Positions 44,142 through 64,000 of a DNA stretch of 64,000 nt are shown here, one piece after another. The DNA lies in NCBI GenBank assembly GCA_002418265.1, contig DIDS01000014.1:72588-136587 (forward strand), written 5' to 3'. Positions within the stretch are counted from its first letter, which is position 1. Each line of letters starts with the position of its first letter. This DNA is from Acidimicrobiia bacterium UBA5794 (GTDB taxonomy: Bacteria; Actinomycetota; Acidimicrobiia; Spongiisociales; UBA5794). The translations under genes were made by a program, and so were the position numbers. The notes under the pieces are model-generated. The model had not been told where the DNA came from. It did no database searches and saw nothing but the letters and a program-made list of their open reading frames with translations.

Positions 44142-44275
44142 ACCTTCAGGGAGGCGTGCGAGCCAGCGAACCCCGTCAGTCCGACGTCGGAAAGCCCCCC
44201 TGCACCTCGCTGCGCTCGGCGCGTCCCCCCGCAAGCGGGAGGACGGATATGGGAGAAAGCTGAAAGCTCTCTAAC
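44142..44275. repeat. Composite repeat: GCGTGCGAGCC...CCCCGTC box, short GACGTC element, GC-rich hairpin module, (AGCTGAA)x2
   Basis: ggaggcgtgcgagccagcgaaccccgtcagtccgacgtcggaaAGCCCCCCTGCACCTCGCTGCGCTCGGCGCGTCCCCCCGCAAGCGGGAGGACGGatatgggagaaagctgaaagctctc. This is nearly the same arrangement as 2341-2452. Confidence 0.8.
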
Positions 44276-44840
44276 CCTTCGGAGCCCATCGTGGGTAGTC
44301 GATTCCAGCGGTACGGTTGATGACAAATCCCTGCACGGTGAGCAATACGACTGCAAGCATCAGCACCGCAAGGTCGCGCGGGGTTGTGAGAATCCCGAGC
44401 GAAACGATCAGCGTGGTGGCACCGGCAGGGGGATGGGGCACCCTGAACCACACCATCAACCCTGATGTCAGCCCGAGCGACAGAGCGGCAGCCCCGACAC
44501 GGGCAAGAGTCACTTCAGTGGCGAGCGCGGGAGCTGCGTCAGTCAGACCGAATATCACCAGCGACAGGTAACCGGCGCCCGCTCCGATCCCGTGGCCCAG
44601 GATAGCGTTCCTTGGTGAGGCCGCCGGGTTCGTCGGAGTGTAGAAGAACAGAAATGCAGTGGGGCCAAGCGACGGAAAAACGAACGGGCTTCCGGTCAAC
44701 AAGGCCGCCATCGACATGATTCCGATTGACAACACGCCGTTGGCGAATGCGAACAGGCCCATCACCGTCGTCGAAGAGTGGCGCTTCACGAGATACGGGA
44801 TCTGCATCCGGCTTGCAAGGCCAAACACGATTGCATTCAT
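44271..44840 (-). CDS. HPP-family membrane protein (family includes nitrite transporters)
   Basis: HPPAGATTLIVSLG motif with four or more TM helices. Start at MNAIVFG with a GGGGGA SD. Confidence 0.7.
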   Translation of the reverse strand: MNAIVFGLASRMQIPYLVKRHSSTTVMGLFAFANGVLSIGIMSMAALLTGSPFVFPSLGPTAFLFFYTPTNPAASPRNAILGHGIGAGAGYLSLVIFGLTDAAPALATEVTLARVGAAALSLGLTSGLMVWFRVPHPPAGATTLIVSLGILTTPRDLAVLMLAVVLLTVQGFVINRTAGIDYPRWAPKG

Positions 44841-44883
44841 CTGTCCCCCGATGGGACCCGTTGAATCGCGTTTGAACTCCGGT

Positions 44884-45087
44884 TCAGTCACGTCGCGGCA
44901 GCACCCTGTAGAACAACACGGCGCAGATCGCCAAGCCGGTGGAAACGGCCGCGGCGGTCCAGCCGAGCTGCGGATCATGCGTCATGTACGCCTCAGCCGC
45001 GATCACGAGAAGGAACAGTTGGAGACTGACGATCAACACGACGAGAGCAAGGAGCGCAGTGCTTCCAGCCGACTTTCGTTTGGCCAT
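44884..45087 (-). CDS. Small two-TM membrane protein, unknown function
   Basis: 67-aa ORF whose ATG overlaps the Rieske gene stop (ATGA). Hydrophobic: LLALVVLIVSLQLFLLVIAAEAY. Confidence 0.35.
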   Translation of the reverse strand: MAKRKSAGSTALLALVVLIVSLQLFLLVIAAEAYMTHDPQLGWTAAAVSTGLAICAVLFYRVLPRRD

Positions 45088-45605
45088 CAGTGACTGCCTC
45101 CCGAAATGCCGACCGCCCATACCTCGCGGTCCCGAATGACCGTGTCGATACGGGTCAGCGGTCGTTCGGGTGGACCCGCTATCGCTTCACCCGCAACGCT
45201 GAAGAACCCTTCATGACAAGGACATTCGAACTCGAAGGTCTCGATGTCCCAGAACACCACACATCCGAGGTGCGTGCATTTCTGGCTGAAAGCAACGACC
45301 TCGTTGAGTTCGGTCCGGACGATGATTGCGGGATCCTTGTCCGTCGGGTACCGGAACAGTTTGCTTCGGCCCGGCGGGATGTCATCGATGGACATGATCA
45401 GTCTTTCAGGTCCGACGTTGGCCGGTCGAAGTGATGCTGCGAGAGCCATCAGTCCACCGCTTCCTGCAAGGGCAATGGACGCGTACGCCAAAAACCGCGT
45501 GAACTCTCGACGCGTGACCTCGTCTTCGCCCGCACTTTCATACGGAAAGTCCTTCTTCCATTGTGGATCGTCCACCGGTTGATCGGCTGTCGGCTGATCG
45601 GTCAC
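45087..45605 (-). CDS. Rieske [2Fe-2S] protein with twin-arginine signal / membrane anchor
   Basis: Box I CTHLGC and box II CPCHEG. Tat motif TRREFTRFLAY followed by a hydrophobic stretch. Best start is GTG at 45605 (GGAGGTGAT SD, 1 nt after the ferredoxin stop); the alternative ATGs at 45632 and 45656 overlap the ferredoxin gene. Confidence 0.8.
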   Translation of the reverse strand: MTDQPTADQPVDDPQWKKDFPYESAGEDEVTRREFTRFLAYASIALAGSGGLMALAASLRPANVGPERLIMSIDDIPPGRSKLFRYPTDKDPAIIVRTELNEVVAFSQKCTHLGCVVFWDIETFEFECPCHEGFFSVAGEAIAGPPERPLTRIDTVIRDREVWAVGISGGSH

Positions 45606-45606
45606 A

Positions 45607-46224
45607 TCACCTCCCAAGTCCGAAAGGATCATCTTGCCACTGGGTCGGTTTCTCACCGATCGTGATCATGACCGGTCCAGGCTCGCTGACCACGGCTGCA
45701 ACCTTTGTGCGTACGGTCTGGCGTCCGAATTGCCAATTCCGTACCAGCGTGCCAGTGCGCTTTGCTGAGAACTCCTCGTCGGATCCGTACCACAACGCCT
45801 CCGATGGACAGACGGACGCACACATCGGTTTCAACCCTTCGGAGGTGCGGTCGTAGCACATGTCGCATTTCATCATCTGGTCGAACGACGCAACGTACTT
45901 CGGGATGCCGAAAGGGCAGGCGTACACGCAGTTTGAGCACCCGATACATCGAGGCTTGAGGGAGGACTGGACGACACCAGACTCGTTCTGTTTGATTGCG
46001 TCAGCTGGGCACACCTCAGCACAGGTCGGGTCTTCACAATGCATGCACACGAGCGGGACGGTCTGTGTCGAAATCGCCCGATCAATCGTATCCAACTGGA
46101 TCAGGGAGACTCCGCGGTGGGTGTCACACTCGGCACAGGCAGCAACACAGGCACGACAGCCGATGCACCGGCTCTGATCGATGGCAAACACCGCCGTTGC
46201 CGGGTCATAGCCGCTTTGGATCAT
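45607..46224 (-). CDS. 4x[4Fe-4S] ferredoxin-type electron-transfer subunit (NrfC/HybA/DmsB-like)
   Basis: Four Cys clusters: [40 protein letters not shown] and CDMCYDR...CASVCP. No Tat signal and no TM segment. Confidence 0.85.
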
Positions 46225-48449
46225 TGGTCACCCTGCAACGTGAGGTCGCGGTCGTCGAGCAGGTCGCGGCGACCTGTGCCCTTCGCCACCTTGACGGCGC
46301 TGACCTTGTATTCCGGAATACCCGAGATCGGATCGATGGCACGTTGCGTCAGAAGATTTGCCGACTTGTCACTTGGCCAGTGATACGGGATGAAAACGGT
46401 ATCTGGTCGAATCGTCTCGACAACCTTTGCCGGAGCCACCATGGTTCCACGCCGCGAGGTGATGCGCACGATGTCGCCGTCGGTAACACCCAAATTGGTC
46501 GCAAGTAGGGGGTGCATCTCGCACAGGGGTTCGGGATACTGATCAACCAGTGCTCCGATCCTTCGAGTCTGTGTTCCCGACAGGTACTGGCTCACCACGC
46601 GCCCGGTCGTAAGGTACAGCGGGTAGTCCGAGTCAGGAACCTCGGCCGATTCGCGCCAAGGGGTCGGGATGAACTTCGCCCGCCCGTCCGGGTGGAAGAA
46701 CTTTCCTCCCTCATAGAGCCGTGGTGTTCCTGGATGTCCGATCTCGGGTGCAGGCCAGAACACACCCTGCTCCTTGACGACGCGATCCCACGTGATGCCG
46801 TAGTAGTCGGCAGTCCCGCCACGGGAGGCTCTCCTGAGTTCGTTGAAGATGTCTTCGGTTGTCTCGTAGTCAAAATACTGTTTGGCCCCCAGCCGATCGG
46901 CGATGTCGCAGATGATCTCCCAGTCCCGGCGAGCGTTGCCAGGCGGACTGACCGCAGCATTGATCTTGACGACCCGACCCTCAAGGGTCGTGACCGTACC
47001 TTCATCCTCCTCATGAAGCGAGCCCGGCAACACGACATCTGCGTGTTGGGCGGTCTCGGAGAGGAAGAAGTCGATGTTGACGTAGTAGTCGAGTTTCCCG
47101 AGCGCTTCTCGTGTGAAGTTGGCGTCGGGGAGCGAAACGAGCGGGTTGAAGCAGATCGACAGCAGACCCTTGATCCGACCCGCATGAATCTCATTCATGA
47201 TCTCCTGGGCCGTGAGACCCTTGCCGGGGAGCTGTGACTCTTCGATACCCCATACGTCGGCGATGAAGGCACGATCGTCCGGGTTCTCAATGTTGCGGTT
47301 GCCTGGCAACTGGTCGCATTTGTGGCCGTGCTCACGTCCACCCTGGCCATTGCCCTGTCCGGTGATCGTGCTCACGCCCGAGCCGGGTTTTCCATACTTG
47401 CCGGTCGCCAAGCCGAGATTGATGCATGCAAGAACGTTGTCGACACCCTTCGTGTGGTGTTCAATCCCACGTGCGTGCAGCAGCATCCCCGTCGCTGAGG
47501 TTCCCCAGATCTCGGCTGCTTCTTCGATTCTCGAAGCTGGCACCCCGGACACCCGCGCAGCCCAGTCAAGCGTTGCGCCCGACACGGCTGCTGCGGCCTC
47601 TTCGAAGCCGTTCGTATGGTTGTCGATGAAATCGTGATCGAGCCAATCGCGTTCAATGATGAGGTTGAACATGGCCGACAACACTGCGAGATCGGTACCC
47701 GGTCGGACGCCGAGAAATACGTCGGCGGTACGTGCGGCCGGGGTGACCCGGGGGTCCATGTAGATGAGCTTTGCGCCGTTGTCACGCGCACGCCAGATGT
47801 AGCTGGTTGTGATCGGTGCACATTCCGCGATGTTCGCCCCTGCCACGAACACGACATCGGTGAGAGGGATGTCTGACCAAGGGTTGGCAGCACGATCGAC
47901 GCCGAGCGCCTTCTTTCCAGCCGCACCCGCCGAGACCATGCACAAACGGCCGTTGTAGTCGAGGTTGGCCGTTCCGACGGCGACTCGTGCGAACTTGCCC
48001 ATGAGATACGATTTCTCGTTCGTGAGCGACACACCCGAAAGGACGGCGAAGGAGTCAGCCCCATGTTCGGCCTGGATCCGTTTGATCTCGGACGCGGTGC
48101 GGTCGAGTGCCGTTTCCCAGTTGATCTTCCTGAAGCCCCCAACCGCCGATTCGTCCCGCGCCAGTGGCTCGGTGAGTCGATCGGGATGGCTTCCTTGGAG
48201 ATACCTCTTCACCCCCTTGGGGCACAACTTGCCCTCGTTGAATGGGAAGTCGTATCGCGGTTCGAAACCGACGACCTTGTTGCCTGACACCTTCAACTTG
48301 ATGCCGCATTGCTGACCGCAGAAACAGCAATGCGTATCAACGACCTTGTCGATCTCGATCCCGGCGTCCCATCCCCCCGGTGGTGTACGGTTGAGATTCG
48401 GCCCATACGTGGCAATGAGCTGCTCTTCTGTGACGGGTGTCATCGCCAT
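46221..48449 (-). CDS. Molybdopterin (bis-MGD) oxidoreductase catalytic subunit, Nas/Nap-type nitrate-reductase-like, cytoplasmic
   Basis: N-terminal [4Fe-4S] motif [10 protein letters not shown]...GKLCPKG, Mo-ligand region [13 protein letters not shown], and [15 protein letters not shown]. The C-terminal MoCo-binding domain has [10 protein letters not shown]...IPYHW. No Tat signal. Start at MAMTPV (ATG 48449). Confidence 0.85.
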
Positions 48450-49498
48450 CAGCCGAACCCCCCAACCCGTGCCACTTGTGCCAATCCGACAACCCGACGC
48501 CTGCATTTGGGGCACACATCCTGATAGTGCTCTCCTGACTCGAACGAGTAGTCGAAGCCAACAGCAGGAAGCACCGCTTTGAGATCCTCCATCTGGAGAA
48601 CGCTTGCAAACCCTTCCCCGCATTGAATGCAGGTCTGCTCCCCGGTTGCCTCCGCAGCCTCCTTGTAGAACGACACCCCGATGTTTGCTGGTCGCTGGAA
48701 GATGTGGAAGAGCTTTCCGAACGGGATGTAGAGCAGCCCCAAAATGACCGTGAGGGCGTGCAGGTTCGTGATGAACGCGTAGAACTGTCCTCCCATCCAC
48801 AAACTGGATGCCGTCAGCATGAGCCCGGTGATCGATACCGCGAACAATCCGACCAAAGGTGCAAAGTCGGATGCCCGTTCGAGTGCAATAGCGCCGCGGT
48901 CACGCATCCGTCTGATCAAGAAAATCGCCACACCGGCGATGACGAGAAAGGCTGCGATGTTGAGCAGGTGGAACACCATGAAGCCGAAGAAGCCGCGCGA
49001 ATCGAATTGGATCGTTGCAAAGGGTCCGAGAAATGCTTCGTAGAGCCGTCCGCTCTCGTCCGCCGATTCGAAGTGGAGCCAACCGAACGTCAGGGGAAAC
49101 GTCACGAGCGCGGCGAGGACGCACCCCCAGAAAAGCAACTGGTGCGCAACCCACCTGACCTTGCTCCTCCCCGCGATGAAACGCTGCAGGAGGATGTTGT
49201 TGACCAGCTTTCCGACGAGGCCCACGGCATTTGACCCCCGTCGGCCTTTGGCCCGCATCGCCTCCCACCCGCGGCTGTTCAACATTGCCGTGGGAGGACG
49301 TCGAAGCCACACGATGTAGCGATACGCGGTCGCGAACACCGCAAGTACCGTTCCGAACAGATACGGGGCAAGTGCCGGATCGAACCATTGCAGACCACTC
49401 GAACCGATGTACACGCCAATGAGAACGAGGACCACCAGAATCGACCCAACGACGACCCCCCGTCGGTCGACTCTCGATGGTGTGGATGCAATCCCCAT
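48449..49498 (-). CDS. NarI-like (nitrate reductase gamma fold) membrane cytochrome b fused to a C-terminal CxxC...CxxC zinc-ribbon
   Basis: Five TM helices with conserved His residues, and C-terminal CIQCGEG...CPKCRRR. The stop overlaps the Mo-subunit start (TGATG). Start uncertain: ATG 49498, or GTG 49567, which would use the end of the repeat module as its SD. Confidence 0.7.
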
Positions 49499-49569: not shown

Positions 49570-49660
49570 CCGTCCTCCCGCTTGCGGGGGGACGCGAGGA
49601 GCGAAGCGACGATGCAGGGGGGGGCAGTCCGACTTCTGACTTCTGACTTCTGACTTCTGG
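49570..49660. repeat. GC-rich hairpin module (inverted orientation) plus (GACTTCT)x4 heptamer array
   Basis: ccgtcctcccgcttgcggggggacgcgaggagcgaagcgacgatgcaggggggggcagtccgacttctgacttctgacttctgacttctgg. Confidence 0.8.
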
Positions 49661-49661
49661 C

Positions 49662-51029
49662 TTACAGGCCTCGCATCAAGAACGCGGCAGCTTGTTCCCG
49701 TGTCAAGGTTTCGGTCGCTCCAAAGCTCCCATCCTCGTGGCCGAGGGCGATCCCGAGCTCGTGGGCAAGTTCAATCTTGCCCACAAGGGGATGATCGGGA
49801 CCGATGTCGGTGAAGTAGCCCTGATACTGGGGATAGTTGGTCTTGCCAAGGGCATCCATCAGCACCGAAACAAGGAAGCCCCGTTCCCCTGGCGAGCCGC
49901 CATCAAATGGGCCTCCAGCGCGAAGCGCTCCAATTTCAACAAGGTACTCGACCGATCCGACAAACCAGGCGTCTGAGGACACGTCGTTGAAGTACGCCCG
50001 ATACGACGGGTAACTCTTCTCGCCGCCGACGGCTCTGGCAATCATCGTCGCTGCCTGTGCGCGCGTAACCGTAGCCGCGGGACAGTATGAGTTCCAGGTG
50101 CATCCAATCGTTATTCCCCGCGCTGCCATCTGTTCGATCTGTGCTTCGGCGTACGAGCCGTCGTCGTCAACGAATGTGCCCTCATAGGTGCCAACACGCG
50201 ACGTATCCGATACCACGCCGTGAGGACCGAAATCGACCACCACATCATGGATTCCCGGTTCGGTGTTCCCATCCCACCAGACAGCCTCGGTGCCGGATCC
50301 GGTGTGCGTCCAAACGACCTTTCCGGACCCCTGGCGAATCTGGATCGTCCAGTTCACGATCGCATCGGCTTCAATGTTGAGCGTCCCACCTTGGGGGGCC
50401 GCGACCGTTTTGAACGATCCGAAGTCGACCGAGAATTGTGCATCGATCTGTTCGGCGGGAACCGCGGCGAGGAGGTAGGGATTCGGGTCCACGGGCGTGC
50501 CGTCGGGCTGGTGATACTCGAAGTGAAGATGAGAGCCAACGTTCTCGGCGTTGCCGGAGTCGCCGACCCAGCCAATGAGTTGTCCTGCCGAAACGCGGAC
50601 TCCGGGCGCAATGCCTTCGGCGATTCCCCAACCCGCACCGTCGTCGGTTCCGGGTGTGTCGTTGTTGAGGTGGATGTACCACGACTCCCAGCCATCGTCG
50701 TGTGTGAGAGCAATCGTGCAGCAACGATCGGGGTTCAGGTTGCCGGGATCCGAACTCCAATTGACGTACCGGATGACACCATTGGCTGCGGCGACAACCG
50801 GAGTCATCTTGGCTGCCATCAGATCGTCGCCTTCGTGGTAGCGGCTACAACCGGCCCGACATGCGCCAAAGTTGTCCGTGTTGTTGACCTTGCCGACGAC
50901 CGGGAAGACGAGGGGAAGATCCTGGGTAACTGCCTTGGCCGGTGGTGGAGCCAAGACGATGATGGTGGCAAGGGCTGTCAGCGCAACAATGGCCGCCACA
51001 GCCCCGAATTGCCTCTGGGAGCGGGCCAT
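49662..51029 (-). CDS. Secreted M23-family metallopeptidase with C-terminal S-layer-homology (SLH) domains
   Basis: Signal peptide, M23 motifs (HEGDDLMAA...HLHFEYH), and two or three SLH-like repeats (FNDVSSDAWFVGSVEYLVEIGAL; FTDIGPDHPLVGKIELAHELGIALG). Confidence 0.8.
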   Translation of the reverse strand: MARSQRQFGAVAAIVALTALATIIVLAPPPAKAVTQDLPLVFPVVGKVNNTDNFGACRAGCSRYHEGDDLMAAKMTPVVAAANGVIRYVNWSSDPGNLNPDRCCTIALTHDDGWESWYIHLNNDTPGTDDGAGWGIAEGIAPGVRVSAGQLIGWVGDSGNAENVGSHLHFEYHQPDGTPVDPNPYLLAAVPAEQIDAQFSVDFGSFKTVAAPQGGTLNIEADAIVNWTIQIRQGSGKVVWTHTGSGTEAVWWDGNTEPGIHDVVVDFGPHGVVSDTSRVGTYEGTFVDDDGSYAEAQIEQMAARGITIGCTWNSYCPAATVTRAQAATMIARAVGGEKSYPSYRAYFNDVSSDAWFVGSVEYLVEIGALRAGGPFDGGSPGERGFLVSVLMDALGKTNYPQYQGYFTDIGPDHPLVGKIELAHELGIALGHEDGSFGATETLTREQAAAFLMRGL

Positions 51030-51132: not shown

Positions 51133-52218
51133 CTATTGGACGGAGACCGCTTGGACGTCCAGTTCTGTTGCCTTGATCGAGACCCACACGGCAACACCCG
51201 GCACCAGTTCGAGAGAACGCGCCGACTCAGTTGTTACCTCGGCTATGAGAGCGAGGGGCGACGAAGTCGCAACCCGCGCGGTGTCCCCAAGCGGCTCAAT
51301 GTGGGCGATCGTCGTCTTCCACGTGTTCCTCGGACTGCCTTCGGGTTTGACGCGATGGAGCGCAACAGCCCTCGGGTGAAAAGTGACGATGACCTTGCCC
51401 GATACATCGTGGGCCGGCATGTAGAGGTCGTGACCGTCAACGTCGACGACTCCGTCCGCAGCTGTTCCCTCAAAGAGGTTCATGCCAGCGAGGTCAGCGG
51501 CATAGCGCGACTGGGGATTGAGCCGAATGTCGGCTGCCGTACCAGACTGACTGACCAGCCCTTCTTCAAGGATGCAAATTTCGTCCCCGAGCAAGAACGC
51601 CTCGGTCGGATCATGGGTGATCACGAGAGCCGGACCGTTGTACGAATTGAGGAACTCGGCGATGGTTCTTCTGGCGTGCGCCTTGGTTGTGACATCGAGC
51701 GATCCGAGAGGCTCATCAAGAATGAGAAGTCGTGGATCAGTCACCACGGCGCGAGCAAGGGCGACCCGCTGAGCCTCACCGCCCGACAGCTCGGCTGGTC
51801 TGCGTTCAGCCAGATCCGTGAGCCCGAGGCGATCCATCCACACATCCGTGCGCGATGCTGCATCGCCCTTCGAGATGCCAGTGCTCCGCAGCCCGAAAGC
51901 GATGTTGTCCCTTACGCTGAGATGTGGAAACAACAGACCGTCCTGGAACATGACACCGATGCCGCGTTGTGCCGGAGGAACGAACACACCTTGGTCTGTG
52001 TCTTCAAGGACCACTCCGCCAAGTTCAACCCTCCCTTCATCAATCGGTGAAAGCCCAACAAGGGCAGCGACGAGCGTCGACTTTCCTGCACCATTCGGGC
52101 CGAGAACGGCCAGAGTGGATCCGGAGGCGATCTCGATGGCCACATCGAGCCCGAACCCCTCGCTGCGAGCCACCTTGATGTCGGCCGAGAGTCCTTCGTT
52201 CTTCACGACACCCCCCAC
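51133..52218 (-). CDS. modC: Molybdate ABC transporter ATP-binding protein with C-terminal TOBE domain
   Basis: Walker A GPNGAGKST, signature LSGGEAQRVALARA, C-terminal Mop/TOBE domain. Confidence 0.85.
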   Translation of the reverse strand: MGGVVKNEGLSADIKVARSEGFGLDVAIEIASGSTLAVLGPNGAGKSTLVAALVGLSPIDEGRVELGGVVLEDTDQGVFVPPAQRGIGVMFQDGLLFPHLSVRDNIAFGLRSTGISKGDAASRTDVWMDRLGLTDLAERRPAELSGGEAQRVALARAVVTDPRLLILDEPLGSLDVTTKAHARRTIAEFLNSYNGPALVITHDPTEAFLLGDEICILEEGLVSQSGTAADIRLNPQSRYAADLAGMNLFEGTAADGVVDVDGHDLYMPAHDVSGKVIVTFHPRAVALHRVKPEGSPRNTWKTTIAHIEPLGDTARVATSSPLALIAEVTTESARSLELVPGVAVWVSIKATELDVQAVSVQ

Positions 52219-53009
52219 CAGCGATCACGAAGAAGAACCAGCACCGCGAGCGAAACGGCAACCATGACGAGGCTCATTGCGATCGCGGCGTTGCGGTTCG
52301 ATTCAAGTGCAACAAACACCGCGAGGGGCATCGTCTGGGTACGCCCTTGAACGTTGCCAGCAAAGGTCAGCGTTGCCCCGAACTCACCGAATGCCCGCGC
52401 CCAGGTAAGCGCCAATCCGGAAGCGAGCGACGGCATGATCAGGGGAATGGTCACACGCCGAAGAACCGTCCATCGTCCGGCACCAAGTGATTCGGCAGCT
52501 CCTTCGTACCTCCCGTCAATACTCCGCAGACCCGCTTCGACGGTGATCACGACAAAGGGCATCGCGACGAACGTGACCGCAACGATGACACCCCATATCG
52601 AGAATGGCAGGACGATACCGGTAGCGTCATACAGCGGCCCACCAACCACGCCTCTCCTTCCAAGGGCGAACAGCAGGGCGGCACCGCCGACCACCGGGGG
52701 CAGAACGATCGGGAGGAGTACCAGTGCACGAACGAGACTTTTGCCACGGAAGTCCGTCCTTGCCAGCAAGAACGCGATCGGGACACCGATGCAAAAAGAA
52801 ATCAAGGTTGCGGCAACCGATGCGACAAGCGAAATCTGAAGGGCATCAAGCACAACATCGTCAGCGAGAAGTGAACCGAGGTCACTCCATGGCGTTCGGA
52901 TCAGGAGACCAATGATCGGTAGGGCAAGGAACATGACGCCAACAACCCCAAGAGCCATGATCACGATCGGTGGGCGTTCGGTCCGATTCCAGCGTTGACG
53001 TCGGTTCAT
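52203..53009 (-). CDS. modB: Molybdate ABC transporter permease
   Basis: ModB/CysT-type permease core (LLPIVLPPVVGG...). Confidence 0.85.
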   Translation of the reverse strand: MNRRQRWNRTERPPIVIMALGVVGVMFLALPIIGLLIRTPWSDLGSLLADDVVLDALQISLVASVAATLISFCIGVPIAFLLARTDFRGKSLVRALVLLPIVLPPVVGGAALLFALGRRGVVGGPLYDATGIVLPFSIWGVIVAVTFVAMPFVVITVEAGLRSIDGRYEGAAESLGAGRWTVLRRVTIPLIMPSLASGLALTWARAFGEFGATLTFAGNVQGRTQTMPLAVFVALESNRNAAIAMSLVMVAVSLAVLVLLRDRWWGVS

Positions 53010-53022
53010 GATTGCTGCGGTG

Positions 53023-54310: not shown

Positions 54311-54928
54311 ATGGTCAAACAGACTCGTGCGAAACCCATGTCCACTGAGGATCGCCAGCAGGCAATCCTCGATGCTGTCACACCGCTGATCGTTGAGCGG
54401 GGGTCCAAGGTCACGACGTCGGAGATGGCCAAGGCCGCGGGCGTTGCTGAGGGAACCATCTACTCGGTGTTCCCGGACAAGCACTCACTGATCATTGCTG
54501 CAGTGCGGGCTTCCCTCGATCCTGCTGCGGTGCAGGCGGCTGTTGGCAACATCGATCGCACCCAATCCCTTCAGATGCAGCTCCAGGATGCTGCGACGAT
54601 TCTTGCGGATCGTATCGAACGAGTGATGGCGCTCTTTGATGCGCTCCGTTCGCTTCCCAATCACAGCCATCACGATGGCAAACACGCCAGACGCTTCATC
54701 GCCCAAACAGAGGCGGCAGTCACCGAGACCCTCACGGAGCTGTTGGAAGCACACCGGGACGACCTTGCGATCGAGCCAGTCCGTGCCGCGTCAGCCCTTC
54801 GCGGTCTCATCTTTGCGATCCGCCATCCGATGCTCCCCCCTGACCAACGCCTCACCGTCGAAGAAGCCGTGACAATTCTGATCTCGGGGATCGCCAGCCG
54901 ACACACCACGACGAAGACAGGCTCGTAG
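54311..54928 (+). CDS. TetR-family transcriptional regulator
   Basis: HTH TSEMAKAAGVAEGTIYSVF. Start ambiguous among TTG 54305, ATG 54311 and ATG 54338. Confidence 0.8.
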   Translation: MVKQTRAKPMSTEDRQQAILDAVTPLIVERGSKVTTSEMAKAAGVAEGTIYSVFPDKHSLIIAAVRASLDPAAVQAAVGNIDRTQSLQMQLQDAATILADRIERVMALFDALRSLPNHSHHDGKHARRFIAQTEAAVTETLTELLEAHRDDLAIEPVRAASALRGLIFAIRHPMLPPDQRLTVEEAVTILISGIASRHTTTKTGS

Positions 54929-54937
54929 GGGATTCCG

Positions 54938-56671
54938 ATGCTGATCCGTCTGCTCAGGAGCCACCTTGCACCGTACAAGCGCTGGATCATGATCATCGTT
55001 GCACTCCAGTTCGTTGCGACCGTGGCATCACTCCTGCTCCCGAGCCTCAACGCCGACATCATCGACAAGGGTGTTGTCACCGGTGATACCGACTACATCC
55101 TGCGCATCGGTTCGATCATGCTCGCCGTGTCTGCGCTTCAAGTCATCGCGTCAATCTCCGCTGTGTACTTCGGGGCAAAGACGGCGATGGCATTCGGCAG
55201 AGACCTCAGGAGCTCAATCTTCCGCAAGGTTGCGTCCTTTTCGACACGTGAGATGTCCCACTTCGGTGCCCCGTCGCTGATCACCCGCAACACGAACGAT
55301 GTCCAGCAGGTCCAGATGCTCGCCATGATGACATTCACGCTCATGGTGATGGCACCCATCATGATGGTTGGAGGCATCATCATGGCACTGCGTGAAGATG
55401 TCGGACTGTCATGGCTTGTGGCAGTCGCCGTTCCGCTGCTCGCCGCCATCCTTGCGATCGTGATCTCGCAGATGATCCCGGCTTATCGCAAGATGCAGAT
55501 TCGGATCGACACGGTGAACCGGGTGCTCCGGGAGCAGCTGAGCGGAATCCGGGTGCTTCGCGCTTTCGTTCGTGAGCCATACGAGACCGATCGATTCGAA
55601 AAGGCCAACCAAGAGCTCACGGACGTGTCGCTCACGGTCGGACGGTGGATGGCAGCAATGTTCCCCATCGTGATGCTCATCCTGAACCTGACGAGCGTTG
55701 CCGTGTTGTGGTTCGGCGGACACCGAGTCGACGCAGGGACAATGGAGATCGGTGCGCTTACCGCATACCTCACCTACCTCATCCAGATCCTGATGTCGGT
55801 CATGATGGCCACGTTCACGTTCGTGATGGTTCCGAGGGCGGCAGCGAGCGCCGATCGCATCGGCGAGGTCCTTGACACCGAATCGTCCGTCGTACCACCG
55901 GAATCGGGGATCACCGCGGTCGATCGACATGGTGAGGTTCAATTTCTCGATGTCGAGTTCACCTATCCGGGGGCGAGTGATCCGGTTCTTCGTGACATCA
56001 ACCTCACCGCACGAGCCGGTCAGACAACCGCAATCGTTGGATCCACCGGGGCAGGCAAGACAACCCTGATGAATCTGATACCGAGGCTCTTCGACGCAAC
56101 CTCGGGAACGGTGCTCGTCAATGGTGTGGATGTCCGAAACCTTGATCCCGACTTCCTCTGGAGTCGGATCGGGCTGATCCCCCAGAATCCATACCTGTTC
56201 ACCGGCACAGTTGCATCGAACCTGCGATACGGCAAACCGGATGCCACCGAAGCCGAGATGTGGCGAGCGCTCGAGATTGCCCAGGCGCGAGGCTTCGTCG
56301 AGGACATGCCCGAAGGCCTTGACGCACCGATCGCACAGGGTGGTACCAATGTTTCGGGCGGCCAACGACAGCGTCTTTCGATTGCCCGAGCACTGATCCG
56401 CTCCCCCGAGATCTACCTGTTCGATGACTCGTTTTCTGCGCTCGATCTTGCAACCGACGCTCGGCTTCGTGCCGCCCTCACCGCGGTGACGACGCAAGCA
56501 ACCGTCATCATCGTCGCGCAGCGGATCTCGTCGATCAAAAGCGCAGACCAGATTGTCGTGCTCGACGATGGCGCCATCGTGGGAATCGGAACACACGGTG
56601 AACTGCTCGAATCGTGCCAGACCTACGCCGAGATTGTCGAGTCGCAACAGATGGCCGAGGTGCCGCGATGA
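54938..56671 (+). CDS. ABC exporter, fused permease/ATPase (type I exporter, half-transporter 1)
   Basis: Six-TM domain followed by an NBD with Walker A GSTGAGKTTL and signature VSGGQRQR. Confidence 0.85.
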   Translation: MLIRLLRSHLAPYKRWIMIIVALQFVATVASLLLPSLNADIIDKGVVTGDTDYILRIGSIMLAVSALQVIASISAVYFGAKTAMAFGRDLRSSIFRKVASFSTREMSHFGAPSLITRNTNDVQQVQMLAMMTFTLMVMAPIMMVGGIIMALREDVGLSWLVAVAVPLLAAILAIVISQMIPAYRKMQIRIDTVNRVLREQLSGIRVLRAFVREPYETDRFEKANQELTDVSLTVGRWMAAMFPIVMLILNLTSVAVLWFGGHRVDAGTMEIGALTAYLTYLIQILMSVMMATFTFVMVPRAAASADRIGEVLDTESSVVPPESGITAVDRHGEVQFLDVEFTYPGASDPVLRDINLTARAGQTTAIVGSTGAGKTTLMNLIPRLFDATSGTVLVNGVDVRNLDPDFLWSRIGLIPQNPYLFTGTVASNLRYGKPDATEAEMWRALEIAQARGFVEDMPEGLDAPIAQGGTNVSGGQRQRLSIARALIRSPEIYLFDDSFSALDLATDARLRAALTAVTTQATVIIVAQRISSIKSADQIVVLDDGAIVGIGTHGELLESCQTYAEIVESQQMAEVPR

Positions 56672-58635
56672 CCAGCAGCGGCAAGAACGGGGAGCTCAAA
56701 ACAACCGAGCGTGTGGTGGCACAGGGAGGCCCCGGGCGTGGAATGGGCGGCGGACAGATCGCCCAGAAACCGTTGGCATTCAAGGAGTCAGGGAAGCGGC
56801 TGCTGAACAGGCTCAGACCGCAAGGGCTGAAGGTGGCCTTTGTGTTGCTCGCAGCCATTGTGAGCGTCGGCCTCGCATCCCTTGGTCCACGCGTCCTCGG
56901 ACGTGCGACCGACCTGATCTTCGCCGGTGCCATCGGGGGCCAGCTGCCTGCGGGAATGACGAAGCAACAAGTGATTGATTCCGCAACAGCTTCGGGTAAT
57001 CACAAGCTGGCGGACATGCTCTCAGGCATCGACATTGTGCCGGGCACCGGCATCGACTTTCGAGCGGTCGGCACCGTTCTTCTCATCGTCATTGTCCTCT
57101 ACGTCGGATCAGCATTGCTGTCCTTCCTCCAGGGGTACCTCCTCAACGACGTCGTTCAGGACACAGTCATGAAACTTCGCGCTGAAGTTGAGGACAAGAT
57201 CCACAAACTGCCGCTCAGCTACTTCGACCGCCAACCCCGTGGTGAACTCCTCTCGCGGGTGACCAACGACATCGACAATGTGTCCCAAAGTCTTCAGCAG
57301 ACAATGAGTCAGCTCCTCACGTCGCTCCTCACCGTCGTCTTCGTGGTGATAATGATGGTTTTGATCTCCCCTGTCCTTGCTCTGATTGCTCTGATCACCA
57401 TCCCGGTAACCATGGTCATTGCTGCCCTGATCATGACGCGGTCCCAGAAACAGTTCGTGACCCAGTGGAGACGGACCGGGACGGTCAACGCCCAGGTCGA
57501 GGAGGCATTCACCGGGCATTCGCTGATCAAGGTGTTTGGACGCCAGGACGAAGTGCAAGACGTGTTCGAGTCCGAGAACGAGCAGCTCTATGAGGCAAGC
57601 TTCTCGGCCCAGTTCCTCTCCGGCCTGATCATGCCGATCATGATGTTCATTGGGAATTTGAACTATGTGATCATCGCGGTCATCGGGGGACTGCGGGTCG
57701 CGAGCGGAACGATGAGTCTCGGGGATGTGCAGGCGTTCATCCAATACTCGCGTCAGTTCACCCAGCCCGTCACCCAGATTGCCTCAATGGTGAACCTGCT
57801 CCAATCAGGGGTCGCATCAGCAGAACGCGTCTTCGAACTCCTCGACGCCGAGGAAGAAGAGCCAACCGACCATCATCCACGAATGGTCGACAACCCTCGT
57901 GGTCGCGTGGTGTTTGAGGACGTCTCGTTCCGCTACGAGCCGGACCAGCCCCTGATCGAGGATCTGTCGATGGTGGTCGAGCCCGGACAGACGGTTGCCA
58001 TCGTTGGACCCACCGGCGCCGGCAAGACGACGCTCGTGAACCTGATCATGCGCTTCTACGAACTCGACGGCGGTCGTATCACCCTCGATGGTGTCGACAC
58101 CTCGCTCATGCCGCGTGCTGACCTGCGATCCCGGATCGGGATGGTGCTCCAGGACACGTGGTTGTTCAAGGGAACGATCCGCGACAACATCGCGTACGGC
58201 AATCCCGATGCCACCGAAGACGAGCTCCTTGAAGCCGCGAAGGCAACGTTCGTGGACCGCTTCGTCCACAGCCTTCCCGACGGCTATGACACCGTCATCG
58301 ACGACGAGGGGACAAACATCTCATCTGGTGAAAAACAGCTCATCACCATCGCGAGAGCCTTCGTCGCGCAGCCAGCACTCCTGATTCTGGATGAAGCAAC
58401 GAGCTCTGTTGACACGCGCACCGAACTGCTCGTACAGCACGCCATGGCAGCGCTCCGATCCGATCGAACGAGCTTTGTCATTGCTCACCGGCTGTCAACG
58501 ATCCGGGACGCCGATCTCATCCTTGTGATGGAGGAGGGACGCATCGTCGAGCGGGGGACCCATGGGGAACTCCTCGATCGCAATGGAGCCTATGCGTCGC
58601 TGTACAACTCGCAATTCGGCATGTCTGACGTCTGA
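56668..58635 (+). CDS. ABC exporter, fused permease/ATPase (half-transporter 2; heterodimer partner)
   Basis: Walker A GPTGAGKTTL and signature SSGEKQL. ATGA overlap with the upstream gene. The last four codons (MSDV-stop) lie inside the palindromic heptamer array. Confidence 0.85.
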   Translation: MTSSGKNGELKTTERVVAQGGPGRGMGGGQIAQKPLAFKESGKRLLNRLRPQGLKVAFVLLAAIVSVGLASLGPRVLGRATDLIFAGAIGGQLPAGMTKQQVIDSATASGNHKLADMLSGIDIVPGTGIDFRAVGTVLLIVIVLYVGSALLSFLQGYLLNDVVQDTVMKLRAEVEDKIHKLPLSYFDRQPRGELLSRVTNDIDNVSQSLQQTMSQLLTSLLTVVFVVIMMVLISPVLALIALITIPVTMVIAALIMTRSQKQFVTQWRRTGTVNAQVEEAFTGHSLIKVFGRQDEVQDVFESENEQLYEASFSAQFLSGLIMPIMMFIGNLNYVIIAVIGGLRVASGTMSLGDVQAFIQYSRQFTQPVTQIASMVNLLQSGVASAERVFELLDAEEEEPTDHHPRMVDNPRGRVVFEDVSFRYEPDQPLIEDLSMVVEPGQTVAIVGPTGAGKTTLVNLIMRFYELDGGRITLDGVDTSLMPRADLRSRIGMVLQDTWLFKGTIRDNIAYGNPDATEDELLEAAKATFVDRFVHSLPDGYDTVIDDEGTNISSGEKQLITIARAFVAQPALLILDEATSSVDTRTELLVQHAMAALRSDRTSFVIAHRLSTIRDADLILVMEEGRIVERGTHGELLDRNGAYASLYNSQFGMSDV

Positions 58636-58662
58636 CGTCTGACGTCGGAGGTCGGACGTCAG
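58623..58662. repeat. Palindromic heptamer array (TCTGACG)x3-ggaggtcg-GACGTCAG that supplies the stop codons of both convergent genes (ABC exporter on +, mobB on -)
   Basis: gtctgacgtctgacgtctgacgtcggaggtcggacgtcagtg. Confidence 0.8.
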
Positions 58663-59228: not shown

Positions 59229-59353
59229 TCCGCCTCCTTGGTCGTGGGCCGTAGCCTGCGAGTCCACACAGTAGCCATCGAGAATCTATTTATGAGTTGG
59301 AATCATATGAACTACGAAACTGTGCTAACGTACCACAGCGAACGGAGGCCCAT

Positions 59354-62300: not shown

Positions 62301-62824
62301 ATGCCAACCCTGCCGACCGACCCTTCACCGGATGGTCCGCAGACCATGAATATTCAGACGTGGCACGCCTGATGGCTCGGGTGTCGTACAACTTGGCGTA
62401 CCCCGCAGGGGTAACCATGCTCAAGCACGCCTTTTACATGGCAACACCCCTGACGGTCAAGGCCCAGAAGGAACGCCCGGACGGTCGAGCACTGTCACCG
62501 AATGGATACCAAGCGAGCTTCCGGCACGGTTCCCAGCAGAGCATCACCCGAGGCTGGGCTCCCCCGATGCACCAGACGGACAGCCTGTTCCACAAGAAGG
62601 CGGGAGGGATGACGTTCATCTTCGGCTTTGACGTCGACAACCACGCCATCAACACCTGTCCGAAGGAAACGCTCGTCAAGATCACCAAGGCAGAGTCCGG
62701 TGGGCTCAACGGGCAGGGTGCATGGGAACCGGGAACCACGGGTGAGAGCCCTGGGTCTGAGAACGCCGCGATGCAGCGCTACATCATGGGCGACTTCACC
62801 ACGGTGCAGGGAGGTACGCCATGA
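59354..62824 (+). CDS. Tat-exported NarG/NxrA-like molybdopterin oxidoreductase alpha subunit (periplasmic-Nar/Nxr/type-II DMSO-reductase lineage), 1157 aa
   Basis: Twin-arginine signal VTRRKFLKGSAVAAAGAYVATQAF. N-terminal NarG-like block ...CAPNDTHMCRLRAFTRNGVVIRLEQ...NPRGCLKGYTLHRRVYGPYRL aligns to NarG ([25 protein letters not shown]...PRGCPRGASYSWY). Size and collinearity with NarG. GTG start with a GGAGG SD. Confidence 0.8.
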   Translation: MKKVTRRKFLKGSAVAAAGAYVATQAFDSAFTFFQAAPGIDNPLVFYPTRDWESIYRDQYAYDGSFPVVCAPNDTHMCRLRAFTRNGVVIRLEQNYDGGNYKDPAGNSSTVAWNPRGCLKGYTLHRRVYGPYRLRTPMLRAGWKQWADDGFPSLSDNPELRIQYRFDSRSEDEFIPMETAEIDDYVARGLEAIAATYSGEEGRRRLIDEDGYEPEMLEFWEESGVRTMKFGSSLPIHGVAGKFGLGRFANMLSLLDARVRGVGEDEAVGAREWSEYTWRGDQAPGFPFVHGVQAAETDMSDLRQSRLLIQVGKNLVENKMPESHFFQEIIERGGKVVSIVPEYGPQASKADYWIPVRAGLSDTALFLGIAKALIDRRLYDTDFLKRFTDFPLLVRLDTLQRLRADEVFAGYTPKLGSGAVSFTVHGMTAEQYAQIGDRVVMSEQGELVAITREDIGNRMSAAGVDPTLDFRGEVTLADGSTVEVATVLSMYRDHLKDYDLDTVIEITGSPRDLVERLIEDIATIKPMGIHVGEGINHYFHATLHNRAVYMVSMLTGNIGVPGSGVSTWAGNYKGGIFQAAPWFGPGVGGYVNEDPFHPLLNVDDRYTAETTKHRVHGEETSYWGYGDKPLVVDTPSEGRKVFTGTTHLPTPTKVMWYNNANLINQAKWAYELVHNVNPKVDMIVDQQIEWTASAENADVIFPVNSWMEFETLEMAGSCSNPFLQLWKGGIEPLYDSRDDIAVFAGVAGALTAHTGEQLFADYFTFATEGRPEVYLDRVLAASFTTEGYTVDDIMNGNYGEPGGALMLYRTLPRIPFFEQVHDDEPFSTDTGRMHAYVDTPEAIEYGENMIVHREAIEATAYLPNVIVSTSPYLRPQSYGIALDDIDAGRRQVRNVMMPWSEVKATRNPLFESGYQFLCLTPKSRHSVHSSWAVTDWHWIWNSNFSDPYREDKRLPGVGDTQLHMNPDDARALGIDNGDYVWVDANPADRPFTGWSADHEYSDVARLMARVSYNLAYPAGVTMLKHAFYMATPLTVKAQKERPDGRALSPNGYQASFRHGSQQSITRGWAPPMHQTDSLFHKKAGGMTFIFGFDVDNHAINTCPKETLVKITKAESGGLNGQGAWEPGTTGESPGSENAAMQRYIMGDFTTVQGGTP

Positions 62825-63141
62825 CCGCCACCTGGGAACCGGTACGCCTCCTTGACGTTCGACCAGAGATCGACCCGGCCTTCAAGGTCGAAAAGGATGT
62901 TGAGGCCGAGGATCCCCTGGAGCTCGTCGGTGTCACATACCCCACCGATCGGGAGGCAGACACGATTGCCGCCCGGTGCTTCGTCGAGGAATATGCGATG
63001 ATCGGATGGCGTGCCGATGACATCGCCGCCCTCTTCACATCACCCGAGTATGCAGCGCTGTACCGCATGTTTTCGGCATACGGATTCGGCTTCGTCCATG
63101 AGGCCATTGCCTCCGTCTTTCCAGATCAGAGGAGAGCCTGA
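62821..63141 (+). CDS. Hypothetical 106-aa acidic protein inserted between the alpha and beta subunit genes, translationally coupled on both sides
   Basis: ATGA overlap with the alpha-subunit stop and TGATG overlap with the beta-subunit start; no recognisable motif. Confidence 0.5.
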   Translation: MTATWEPVRLLDVRPEIDPAFKVEKDVEAEDPLELVGVTYPTDREADTIAARCFVEEYAMIGWRADDIAALFTSPEYAALYRMFSAYGFGFVHEAIASVFPDQRRA

Positions 63142-64000
63142 TGGCACAGGTACACAACTGGCATCTCGGTCGTGACATGGAGTACCCGTACACCGGTGGC
63201 ACGTATGACCGGCAGTTCGCCGCCGTATTCAACATCAACCGATGCATTGCGTGTCAGACATGCACGATGTCGTGCAAATCCACATGGACCCACTCCCCCG
63301 GTCAGGAGCTCATGTGGTGGAACAATGTCGAAACCAAACCCTACGGTGGCTATCCGACCCATTGGGATTCACGATTGCTCTCCATGCTCGAGACGGCAAA
63401 CCCCGGTGGCCAGACCTGGACCAAGGAACCGGGCCCAACATCTGCCCCGTATGGCCAATTTAGTGGGCAGACCATTTTTGAGGCCGCAGACCTCGGTCAA
63501 CGCGTCCTCGGCTACATCCCAGAAGAGAACGATTGGAAGGCACCAAACCGCTTTGAGGACCACGCAACCGGCGCCCCAAGGACCGGTGCATCGCTCCCCG
63601 AGCATGAAGGCTGGTTCTTCTATCTGGCAAGGATCTGCAACCACTGCACCTACCCCGGATGTCTCGCGGCGTGCCCGCGAAACGCCATCTACAAGCGCCC
63701 CGAGGACGGCATCGTGCTCATCGATCAGGAACGCTGCCGTGGCTATCAGAAGTGCGTCGAAGGTTGTCCGTACAAGAAATCGATGTATCGCCCGACAACG
63801 CGAACCTCAGAAAAGTGCATTGCGTGCTACCCCCGAATCGAGGGAAGCGATCCCCTCACCGGCGGTGACCCCATGGAGACCCGATGCATGACAGCCTGCG
63901 TTGGCAAGATTCGGATGCAGGGTCTCGTCAACGTGAACACCGACGGCACCTGGATGAACGAGCCGTCGCACCCCCTGTACTACATGGTGCATGAAGAGAA
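63141..64000 (+). CDS. NarH/NxrB-like Fe-S beta subunit (partial, runs off the window end)
   Basis: N-terminus MAQVHNWHLGRDMEYPY...FNINRCIACQTCTMSCKSTWT...WWNNVETKPYGGYP matches NarH (MKIRSQVGMVLNLDKCIGCHTCSVTCKNVWT...FNNVETKP). Later Cys clusters: CNHCTYPGCLAACP, CRGYQKCVEGCP and CIACYPRIE. The frame stays open to position 64000. It is not in the ORF track because it is truncated. Confidence 0.75.
   Translation, partial: MAQVHNWHLGRDMEYPYTGGTYDRQFAAVFNINRCIACQTCTMSCKSTWTHSPGQELMWWNNVETKPYGGYPTHWDSRLLSMLETANPGGQTWTKEPGPTSAPYGQFSGQTIFEAADLGQRVLGYIPEENDWKAPNRFEDHATGAPRTGASLPEHEGWFFYLARICNHCTYPGCLAACPRNAIYKRPEDGIVLIDQERCRGYQKCVEGCPYKKSMYRPTTRTSEKCIACYPRIEGSDPLTGGDPMETRCMTACVGKIRMQGLVNVNTDGTWMNEPSHPLYYMVHEE

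Follow-up and report, generated by a model that had tools for sequence, protein, structure and literature searches.

Two predicted nitrate/nitrite molybdoenzymes on opposite membrane faces, encoded beside molybdenum supply genes in Acidimicrobiia bacterium UBA5794

The last 20 kb of a 64,000-nucleotide stretch of contig DIDS01000014.1 from Acidimicrobiia bacterium UBA5794 (assembly GCA_002418265.1, positions 72,588 to 136,587; hereafter the window) hold two gene clusters for molybdoenzymes together with genes for molybdenum supply. The first is an operon of the nitrite oxidoreductase (NXR) type whose product carries a twin-arginine (Tat) export signal, and the second is a six-gene cassette built around a Nas-type catalytic subunit. 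We consider it probable, on the strength of sequence comparison, that the two are nitrate/nitrite enzymes working on opposite faces of the membrane and that modABC and mobB provide part of their molybdenum supply. The genes were mapped from a listing of open reading frames and from Pfam and NCBIfam scans of the window proteins. Every gene named in a preliminary description of the window was recovered with the position and strand given there; that inventory was correct as far as it went, and had passed over DUF6755, tatA and tatC, and orf106. Loci are designated L001 and so on, L001 coinciding base for base with the window where the two overlap and reaching 9 kb past its end.

The NXR-type operon starts near the right-hand end of the window and continues beyond it, with the order nxrA-orf106-nxrB-nxrD-nxrC-orf322 in L001:

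59354-62824, plus strand: nxrA, 1156 aa, matching PDB entry 7B04_B and carrying the Tat motif RRKFLKG
62821-63141, plus strand: orf106, with homologues at the equal position in relatives
63141-64000, plus strand: nxrB, cut by the window end (408 aa in the full contig), matching 7B04_A
Downstream of nxrB in L001, from the open reading frame map: nxrD (NarJ-like), nxrC (EB_dh) and orf322, with ten transmembrane helices, then unrelated genes

NxrA was read from a GTG codon at 59354, which has GGAGG ahead of it, rather than from a TTG at 59297. Its best match in the PDB is NXR of Kuenenia stuttgartiensis (7B04_B, 1470.7 bits, residues 22-1170), with an identity of approximately 53% over the 892 aligned positions that were printed; the next-best entries are perchlorate reductase (180 bits), ethylbenzene dehydrogenase (140 bits) and NarG (98 bits). 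In the Kuenenia enzyme Asp275 is a molybdenum ligand, Asn70 faces the substrate, and the FS0 cluster is held by three Cys and one Asp, among them Cys67, Asp71 and Cys75 (PMC8387239). NxrA keeps Cys67, Asn70, Asp71, Cys75 and Asp275 (Kuenenia numbering), its segments VVCAPNDTHMC and TWRGDQAPG being aligned there. NxrB has 7B04_A as its best PDB match, over its full length (580.6 bits), and NxrC, which is also recognised by the EB_dh family (PF09459, 113 bits), has 7B04_C (67.9 bits). Both ligands of haem b are kept in NxrC, the Met in AICMGQ corresponding to Met155 and the Lys in NGQKSVS to Lys305.

The twin-arginine signal of NxrA, MKKVTRRKFLKG, is detected by PF10518 (E = 2.9e-4) and by TIGR01409 (18.8 bits against a cut-off of 16.7), and NxrC is predicted to have an N-terminal Sec signal and a C-terminal hydrophobic anchor helix. 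Together, these signals suggest that NxrC tethers the enzyme to the outer side of the membrane. From its sequence the operon is best read as encoding a complete periplasmic-type NXR, of the kind found in Nitrospira, anammox bacteria and Nitrotoga.

One genome per GTDB species was scanned for relatives of the operon, which gave 536 NxrA relatives, and the best 80 of these were looked at by lineage. The Acidimicrobiia among them are 66-93% identical and the Chloroflexota 58-72%, while relatives of around 60% identity, again among the best 80 of 536, come from Burkholderiales, Hyphomicrobiales, Acidobacteriota, Binatia, Methylomirabilis and Planctomycetota. Window proteins were compared with the relatives' nxr loci by tblastn, and synteny was followed by blastn; the order nxrA-orf106-nxrB-nxrD-nxrC is kept nearly everywhere in the roughly 80 loci.

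The second enzyme is encoded on the minus strand. One and the same gene order (NarI-like membrane subunit, molybdenum subunit, iron-sulphur subunit, Rieske protein, DUF6755, HPP) was seen in more than 20 loci, which come from Acidimicrobiia (other genomes included), Binatia and metagenome contigs. The cassette is found above all in Acidimicrobiia and Binatia. From last gene to first, the cassette in the window comprises:

44271-44840, minus strand: HPP protein (PF04982, 84.9 bits, cut-off 27.2)
44884-45087, minus strand: DUF6755 protein (PF20540, 25.9 bits, cut-off 27)
45087-45632, minus strand: Rieske protein (PF00355)
45607-46224, minus strand: four-cluster ferredoxin (PF13247, 74 bits; TIGR02951, 104 bits, under its cut-off)
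46221-48449, minus strand: molybdenum subunit, 742 aa (PF04879, PF00384 and PF01568)
48449-49498, minus strand: NarI-like membrane protein, 349 aa (weak matches to QmoC, TmcC, HmcE and PF02665)

The molybdenum subunit is matched over its full length by the NasC model NF047855 (818 bits), the score for Fdh-alpha being 604. It has an N-terminal four-Cys [4Fe-4S] motif, a Cys ligand in the sequence GRLCMVSAG, and no signal peptide. Set against the structures of formate dehydrogenases, the Cys/Sec-His pair is replaced by Cys-Met and the catalytic Arg of LRGQNN by Thr (TITGQGN...GGRE). Cys-Met combined with Thr in place of the formate dehydrogenase Arg is the pattern of Nap/Nas nitrate reductases. 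A formate dehydrogenase was rejected, the catalytic His and Arg being replaced. JGI calls many of the subunit's matches "assimilatory nitrate reductase catalytic subunit". The subunit and its ferredoxin are not of the NarG/NarH type (TIGR01580, 57 bits; TIGR01660, 36 bits), and the subunit is not of the AioA type (TIGR02693, 158 bits against a cut-off of 359).

Its partners are unusual for a Nas-type enzyme: in place of the canonical NasB/NADH, ferredoxin/flavodoxin or NapB/NapC, every locus inspected encodes a NarI-like cytochrome b, a four-cluster ferredoxin and a Rieske protein. The ferredoxin resembles DmsB, HybA and FdnH, is 205 aa long and lacks a signal peptide. Six transmembrane helices are predicted for the membrane subunit, with both termini inside. 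In an alignment of 35 homologues it has four invariant His residues and a fifth that is nearly so, situated near both membrane faces, along with IPFGKLFH, a motif like one in NarI, and, both of them invariant, a cytoplasmic loop and a cytoplasmic C-terminal CxxC...CPxC motif. The corresponding motif of NarI is PF(G/T)(K/R)L.H. The family is a large one, with at least 3696 protein clusters matched, and none of the 120 homologues among the matches listed has a Pfam family. NCBI names these proteins "MFS transporter" or hypothetical (P0127, P0128, P0135, P0139 and others) and JGI sometimes "nitrate reductase gamma subunit"; the "MFS transporter" label is probably a systematic misannotation.

The Rieske protein is of the bc1/b6f type, with CTHLGC...CPCH boxes and extra disulfide cysteines, and its best NCBIfam and PDB matches are the Rieske proteins of b6f and bc1 complexes and of arsenite oxidase (AioB). 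It carries a twin-arginine motif (TRREFTRFL) that is followed by one transmembrane helix; in 17 of 17 homologues this motif, the hydrophobic helix and an N-terminal W..DFP..S.GE are kept. The Rieske domain is accordingly predicted to be a bc-type domain on the outer face. We infer that the cassette complex spans the membrane, the Rieske protein being outside, the dihaem cytochrome b within, and the ferredoxin and molybdenum subunit inside. The preliminary description had spoken of a Nas-type operon, and its genes are real; the outward bc-type Rieske protein, and hence the membrane-spanning nature of the complex, had been missed. The DUF6755 protein (67 aa, two transmembrane helices) has a start codon overlapping the Rieske stop codon and takes the same position in relatives, some of which score above the Pfam threshold.

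The last cassette gene, wherever it is present, encodes the HPP protein, which has four predicted transmembrane helices and a VPHPPAG motif and may serve as a channel for nitrite (or for nitrate and nitrite). In cyanobacteria and plastids, nitrite is transported by HPP proteins, and in Kuenenia a shortage of nitrite induces them (PMC7438415). In two loci (L125 and L128) the place of HPP is taken by a NarK-family MFS transporter (TIGR00886 as best match, 217-220 bits, under its cut-off). NirK with a cupredoxin tail is encoded 2-3 kb upstream of the cassette in L123, L126 and L127 (TIGR02376, 291-294 bits, cut-off 296). In L112, ScdA/hemerythrin comes before the cassette, and a dihaem cytochrome c and a true NarG (TIGR01580, 1486 bits) come after it. 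In the Binatia locus L084, the gene after HPP encodes a hemerythrin domain. The swap of transporters, the NirK, NarG and ScdA neighbours and the role of HPP proteins are together best explained by a cassette enzyme that acts on nitrate/nitrite and has its active site in the cytoplasm. Directly after HPP, four loci also have a family-less gene for 389-395 aa (L123, 14181-15368; L124, 14147-15322; L126, 10777-11946; L127, 8407-9576) that has no counterpart in the window.

The suggestion of the preliminary description that both enzymes belong to nitrate/nitrite metabolism therefore held up, through the homology and residues of the NXR on one side and, on the other, the nitrate-reductase-type Cys-Met and TGQ..GGRE of the cassette enzyme and the NarK-like, NirK, NarG and ScdA proteins in its company. 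The opposite sidedness that it had proposed is likewise favoured by the Tat signal of NxrA and the Sec signal and anchor of NxrC, set against signal-less molybdenum and iron-sulphur subunits that are always accompanied by a nitrite/nitrate transporter.

Between the two clusters lie the genes for molybdenum supply:

51133-52206, minus strand: modC (equivalog model, 212 bits, cut-off 285; TOBE domain)
52203-53009, minus strand: modB (TIGR02141, 209 bits, cut-off 183)
53023-53799, minus strand: modA (TIGR01256, 118.5 bits, cut-off 62.5)
53828-54124, minus strand: small 98-aa open reading frame upstream of modA, two predicted transmembrane helices
58659-59225, minus strand: mobB (PF03205, 115 bits, cut-off 26.6; TIGR00176, 121.9 bits, cut-off 76.2)

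modA, modB and mobB pass their curated cut-offs, and modABC and mobB are, by homology, genuine. MobB is an adaptor for the synthesis of molybdopterin-guanine dinucleotide. Its gene is divergent from nxrA across a 128-bp spacer, and the two also adjoin each other in L026, L032, L037, L068 and L070; modABC is found near nxr in L006 and L036. By rough estimate, random placement along a contig of at least 2.7 Mb would put far fewer than four molybdenum-related units into 20 kb.

A working scheme can be drawn from these features. The ABC transporter ModABC would import molybdate. NxrA would be folded with its cofactor in the cytoplasm, aided by the NarJ-like NxrD and by MobB-assisted synthesis of molybdopterin-guanine dinucleotide, and would then pass through Tat along with NxrB. 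Outside, the C-terminal helix of the haem-b protein NxrC would anchor the complex to the membrane face, where it would turn nitrite into nitrate or work in reverse. In the cassette complex, the NarI-like dihaem cytochrome b would pass electrons across the membrane to the cytoplasmic four-cluster ferredoxin and from there to the NasC/NarB-like molybdenum subunit, which would reduce nitrate to nitrite in the cytoplasm, HPP carrying nitrite (or nitrate/nitrite) across the membrane. The Rieske protein, on the outer face, would either contribute to a site of quinol oxidation or hand on electrons to partners that face outwards. A redox loop in which the outer NXR and the inner reductase cycle nitrite and nitrate as an energy source was rejected on thermodynamic grounds, as it has no net chemistry.

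A number of observations weigh against this reading, beginning with the locus itself. Some 9 kb of the 20 kb have no relation to molybdenum, and modC, which does bear a TOBE domain, scores below its cut-off and has as its top NCBIfam match the tungstate protein WtpC (224 bits, under the cut-off of that model), with the modC model second. The other genes of the region and its left-hand border are:

43041-43754, minus strand: tatC (PF00902, 218 bits)
43751-44098, minus strand: tatA (PF02416, 45 bits)
49662-51029, minus strand: M23/SLH peptidase (domain scan)
54311-58635, plus strand: TetR regulator and two ABC exporters (domain scans)

The tatA and tatC genes encode Tat export machinery, lie directly downstream of HPP and the cassette, and are native to the locus, the same genes being present in the syntenic L004. 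The peptidase, between the cassette and modABC, is a secreted M23 enzyme with C-terminal SLH domains and is unrelated to molybdenum; it fits a Gram-positive-type wall with an S-layer.

Comparison with relatives shows how recently the arrangement was put together. In L004, whose NxrA is 88% identical, tatC-tatA is followed directly by TetR-ABC-ABC-nxr, so that the 44.1-54.3 kb segment (cassette, peptidase, modABC and small open reading frame) and mobB are both missing from the locus; two upstream segments, 28.8-32.0 kb and 33.5-43.0 kb, are missing as well. The closest relative, L044 (NxrA 93% identical), retains modA, the small open reading frame and TetR through nxr. It also has an extra 4.2 kb at about 700-4920, between the small open reading frame upstream of modA and the TetR gene. 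In L017, from another Acidimicrobiia metagenome-assembled genome (NxrA 73% identical), the cassette stands immediately upstream of nxrA in the same orientation, and in the metagenome-assembled genome JBKHKD the NXR is on contig L022 and the cassette on a separate contig, L125. Elsewhere, cassettes and nxr operons mostly lie apart: among nxr loci with enough upstream flank only L017 has the cassette, and among the more than 20 cassette loci an NXR-type operon lies within 10 kb only in the window and in L017. The 20-kb arrangement is a young, lineage-specific mosaic and not an ancient conserved island. Its G+C content (0.587-0.606) resembles that of the rest of the window, and the region is not compositionally foreign.

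The preliminary description had judged the composition native, in agreement with this, whereas its "island" and "dedicated module" were overstated given L004 and the scarcity of adjacent pairs elsewhere. It had also suggested looking nearby for moaA, moeA, mobA, narK, nirK, nor and FNR/NarXL-type regulators; neither the window nor the 10 kb after its end contains any of these. Rfam models applied to the whole window at gathering thresholds gave no match, and hence no molybdenum cofactor riboswitch, and a scan for promoters and terminators gave nothing exceeding shuffled controls.

Repeats mark several edges of these segments. An intergenic element resembling repetitive extragenic palindromic (REP) sequences or miniature inverted-repeat transposable elements occurs in four copies (2391-2443, 25758-25810 and 44194-44246 on the plus strand, 49570-49622 on the minus strand). 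It has a GC-rich core of 53 nt (GCCCCCCTGCACC...GTCCCCCCGCAAGCGGGAGGACGG) with a hairpin inside and GTCAGAC/GTCAGAA heptamer repeats ahead; a 26-mer of the core is present exactly four times in the window, with 0 expected. The element was not found in the relatives' loci by blastn and is genome-specific. Two inverted copies bracket the cassette exactly, 44194-44246 (plus) on the left and 49570-49663 (minus) on the right, the latter consisting of a copy of the element and a (GACTTCT) x 4.7 heptamer array. Intergenic spacers at 7785-7805, 34058-34090, 49631-49663, 54220-54256 and 58623-58660 hold tandem arrays of heptamers (GTCAGAC, GACTTCT, AAGCTGA, GTCTGAC). The array at 54.2 kb coincides with the right edge of the 44.1-54.3 kb segment missing in L004, and that at 58.6 kb with the left edge of the missing mobB segment.

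Such a pattern would be expected if the clustering were incidental, that is, if the two enzymes were independent and their arrangement the product of insertions and deletions at a recombination-prone locus, not of selection for a module. The four extra segments relative to L004, the inverted element copies around the cassette and heptamer arrays at the edges of two segments, the restriction of cassette-nxr adjacency elsewhere to L017, and the unrelated genes interspersed in the region all point this way. The operons are nevertheless adjacent in two differing arrangements, in the window and in L017, at 73% NxrA identity; they co-occur in a third metagenome-assembled genome (JBKHKD), mobB and modABC recur beside nxrA elsewhere, and the closest relative retains the stretch from modA through nxr. 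The pairing of the two enzyme systems has thus arisen at least twice by different rearrangements, which is modest evidence for a functional link. We regard a purely incidental origin as possible though rather unlikely, and note that it overlaps with the reading of two opposed enzymes with a molybdenum supply.

For the cassette, the score of the molybdenum subunit is below the equivalog cut-off of the NasC model (1100), the membrane subunit has only weak matches to QmoC, TmcC, HmcE and the NarI-type family PF02665, and its AlphaFold2 model (predicted local distance difference test score, pLDDT, 74.6) has no structural neighbour in the search made with it. The Rieske protein, moreover, has no place in a simple path from quinol to nitrate. 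One alternative is that the cassette encodes an assimilatory nitrate reductase (Nas), supplying nitrite for ammonium assimilation. The NasC equivalog is the best model and matches over the full length, the JGI names agree with it, the active site is predicted to be cytoplasmic, and in cyanobacteria and plastids HPP imports nitrite for assimilation (PMC7438415). Of nirBD, nirA, sirohaem and glutamine synthetase genes, however, none was found beside the approximately 12 cassettes inspected, and because there are no nitrite-to-ammonium genes beside any of these a dissimilatory role is favoured. The partners, a putative dihaem cytochrome b, a four-cluster ferredoxin and an outward Rieske protein, are not NasB, ferredoxin or flavodoxin; the informative neighbours (NirK, NarG with cytochrome c, ScdA) are dissimilatory, and the score is under the NasC cut-off. 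An assimilatory enzyme is therefore, in our judgement, unlikely.

The orientation of the cassette enzyme has to be weighed as well. If the molybdenum and iron-sulphur subunits hitch-hiked on the Tat signal of the Rieske protein, as AioA does with AioB in arsenite oxidase, their active site would be outside; both enzymes would then face outwards and HPP would serve to take up nitrite. The twin-arginine motif is on the Rieske protein and on neither of the other two subunits, tatAC lies directly downstream, the Rieske protein also matches that of arsenite oxidase, and the closest relatives of the ferredoxin are mostly periplasmic. On the other hand, the transmembrane helix after the Rieske signal resembles a permanent anchor and is accompanied by a conserved cytoplasmic N-terminal motif; topology prediction places the strongly conserved loop and the Cys4 domain of the membrane subunit in the cytoplasm, pointing to a partner on that side; the obligatory HPP or NarK-like transporter better fits a cytoplasmic active site; and the molybdenum subunit is distant from AioA, at less than half of the cut-off score for that family. 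We therefore think an exported cassette enzyme decidedly unlikely, and retain the cytoplasmic orientation.

For the NXR-type operon, the only NCBIfam matches of the three subunits are the type II dimethyl sulfoxide (DMSO) reductase alpha, beta and gamma models, all under their cut-offs (316 against 985, 262 against 481 and 162 against 170 bits), and many holders of this NXR type are not known as nitrite oxidisers. These models were built on enzymes of the Ser, Clr, Ddh and Ebd types and the library has no NXR-specific model, and we take the low scores to reflect that gap and not to speak against membership. Other type II DMSO reductases act on chlorate/perchlorate, selenate, dimethyl sulfide or a hydrocarbon, and these matches, with a clade spread over many phyla without known nitrite oxidisers, might point to such a substrate here. 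We think this very unlikely: NxrA scores 1470 bits with NXR-A, eight times its scores with perchlorate reductase (180 bits) and ethylbenzene dehydrogenase (140 bits), all highlighted NXR active-site and FS0 residues are conserved, and the neighbours are nitrate/nitrite-related. The enzyme would either oxidise nitrite or reduce nitrate, the Kuenenia NXR being reversible in vitro and catalysing both reactions (PMC8387239).

A more far-reaching idea, which we put forward as speculative and think improbable, is that the cassette encodes a bc-like nitrate-reducing respiratory complex, in which quinol would be oxidised at a Qo-like site, one electron passing inward to nitrate and the other out via the Rieske protein. 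The Rieske partners might then be the haem b of NxrC in the window and L017, the NirK cupredoxin in L123, L126 and L127, and the NarG cytochrome c in L112. If this were true, NXR and cassette would be a single electron-transfer unit. The related idea that these Acidimicrobiia are unrecognised nitrite oxidisers we hold, jointly with it, to be equally doubtful.

Two further genes of the NXR-type operon have no counterpart in the families searched. orf106 encodes a conserved acidic cytoplasmic protein (106 aa) that is translationally coupled to both nxrA and nxrB. Homologues occur between nxrA and nxrB in 73 of 83 loci from many phyla, with the consensus K..DP..LV...A.C..EE...G...LF..P...G..V, and a hidden Markov model search found 334 representative clusters. 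It has no Pfam or NCBIfam family, 32 distant relatives likewise lack a meaningful Pfam match, and the structure model has a confident C-terminal four-helix core for which a fold search returned no structural neighbour. Judged by this conservation, orf106 is a real, unannotated family. Just past the window end, orf322 (L001, 16751-17719, plus strand) overlaps the nxrC stop codon and encodes 322 aa with ten transmembrane helices. It belongs to no family and is restricted to Acidimicrobiia-type nxr operons, with 25 distinct sequences; because only a single His is conserved (R..TRT..HIPG), it is probably not a dihaem protein.

Acidimicrobiia-type nxr operons were also seen on contigs binned elsewhere (L030, Kiloniellaceae; L041, Gammaproteobacteria; L027, Dehalococcoidia), with NxrA identities of 72-74% and with orf322 in L030 and L041, which suggests binning errors or recent transfer. 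In the nxrA leader, just upstream of the ribosome-binding site, there is an inverted repeat CTGTG-N9-CACAG (59320-59340, plus strand); the 40 nt around it are conserved in L044 and partly in L004, and it is possibly a regulatory or mRNA element. A palindrome in the spacer between mobB and nxrA, TATGA-N7-TCATA, was discarded as not significant, at least one match being obtained in 30 of 100 shuffles.

The NXR-type operon has close parallels. The NXRs of Kuenenia (NXR-ABC, 7B04), Nitrospira, Nitrospina, Nitrotoga and Chloroflexota are likewise built of three subunits, with a chaperone resembling NarJ and an alpha subunit that bears a Tat signal. With the Kuenenia enzyme there is full-length homology of A, B and C, and the molybdenum Asp, the substrate Asn, the 3Cys/1Asp FS0 site and the Met/Lys haem b ligands are common to both. 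Kuenenia also has small open reading frames between A (KSMBR1_1455) and B (KSMBR1_1458) (PMC7438415). Unlike Kuenenia, the host here is presumably a single-membrane actinobacterium, and NxrC is predicted to be anchored in the membrane and not soluble in an anammoxosome; the operon has no NXR-T or cytochrome c gene, it has the additional orf322 with ten transmembrane helices, and nitrite oxidation is at most predicted. Candidatus Nitrosediminicolota has nxrABC(D) beside genes for other molybdoenzymes, namely thiosulfate reductase and arsenite oxidase (PMC11009272), and is a precedent for clustering of molybdoenzymes around NXR, although the neighbours here are instead a Nas-like nitrate reductase, modABC and mobB.

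The cassette shares features with three families. With Nas, NarB and Nap (Bacillus subtilis NasC, cyanobacterial NarB, NapA) it has in common the order Fe4S4 - Molybdopterin - Molydop_binding, Cys-Met and TGQ..GGRE, and it differs from them in its putative membrane dihaem cytochrome b, four-cluster ferredoxin, Rieske protein and constant HPP or NarK-like transporter. As in NarGHI, a cytochrome b, here a putative dihaem protein with a PF(G/T)(K/R)L.H-like motif, is predicted to feed an iron-sulphur subunit and a cytoplasm-facing molybdenum subunit, with a dedicated nitrate/nitrite transporter. Unlike NarGHI, the molybdenum subunit is not NarG-type, the ferredoxin is a 205-aa DmsB-like protein and not NarH, an outward Rieske protein and DUF6755 are added, and the membrane subunit is extended by two helices at its N terminus and by a Cys4 tail. 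The pairing of a signal-less molybdopterin subunit with a bc-type Rieske protein bearing a Tat signal recalls AioAB; it differs from that enzyme in having a Cys ligand and a four-Cys [4Fe-4S] motif in the molybdenum subunit, two more redox subunits, a transporter, and a Rieske protein that seems to be anchored for good. With a Nas-like catalytic subunit, probably a Nar-like working principle and an arsenite-oxidase-like Rieske protein, and with defining features of each of these families lacking, the cassette appears to be new. Literature searches returned no description of a combination of Rieske protein, HPP and nitrate reductase, nor of DUF6755.

Enzymes of the NXR type make nearly all nitrate on Earth, and the accepted lineages of nitrite oxidisers are few. 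This type of NXR is common in Acidimicrobiia, in dozens of the species-level genomes among the 536 GTDB-representative relatives, and our literature searches on Acidimicrobiia with nxr retrieved no description of the operon there. A genome survey of the Acidimicrobiia order UBA5794 gives nitrate-reductase genes only as "narGHI" and nowhere names NXR (PMC12008989); such reporting may hide nitrite oxidation or extracytoplasmic nitrate reduction in actinobacteria that are abundant in soil, sediment and the sea. The cassette, for its part, is widespread and couples a nitrate reductase with a Rieske protein. Should it prove to be respiratory, surveys of denitrification and nitrate-reduction potential that rely on narG and napA would miss it.

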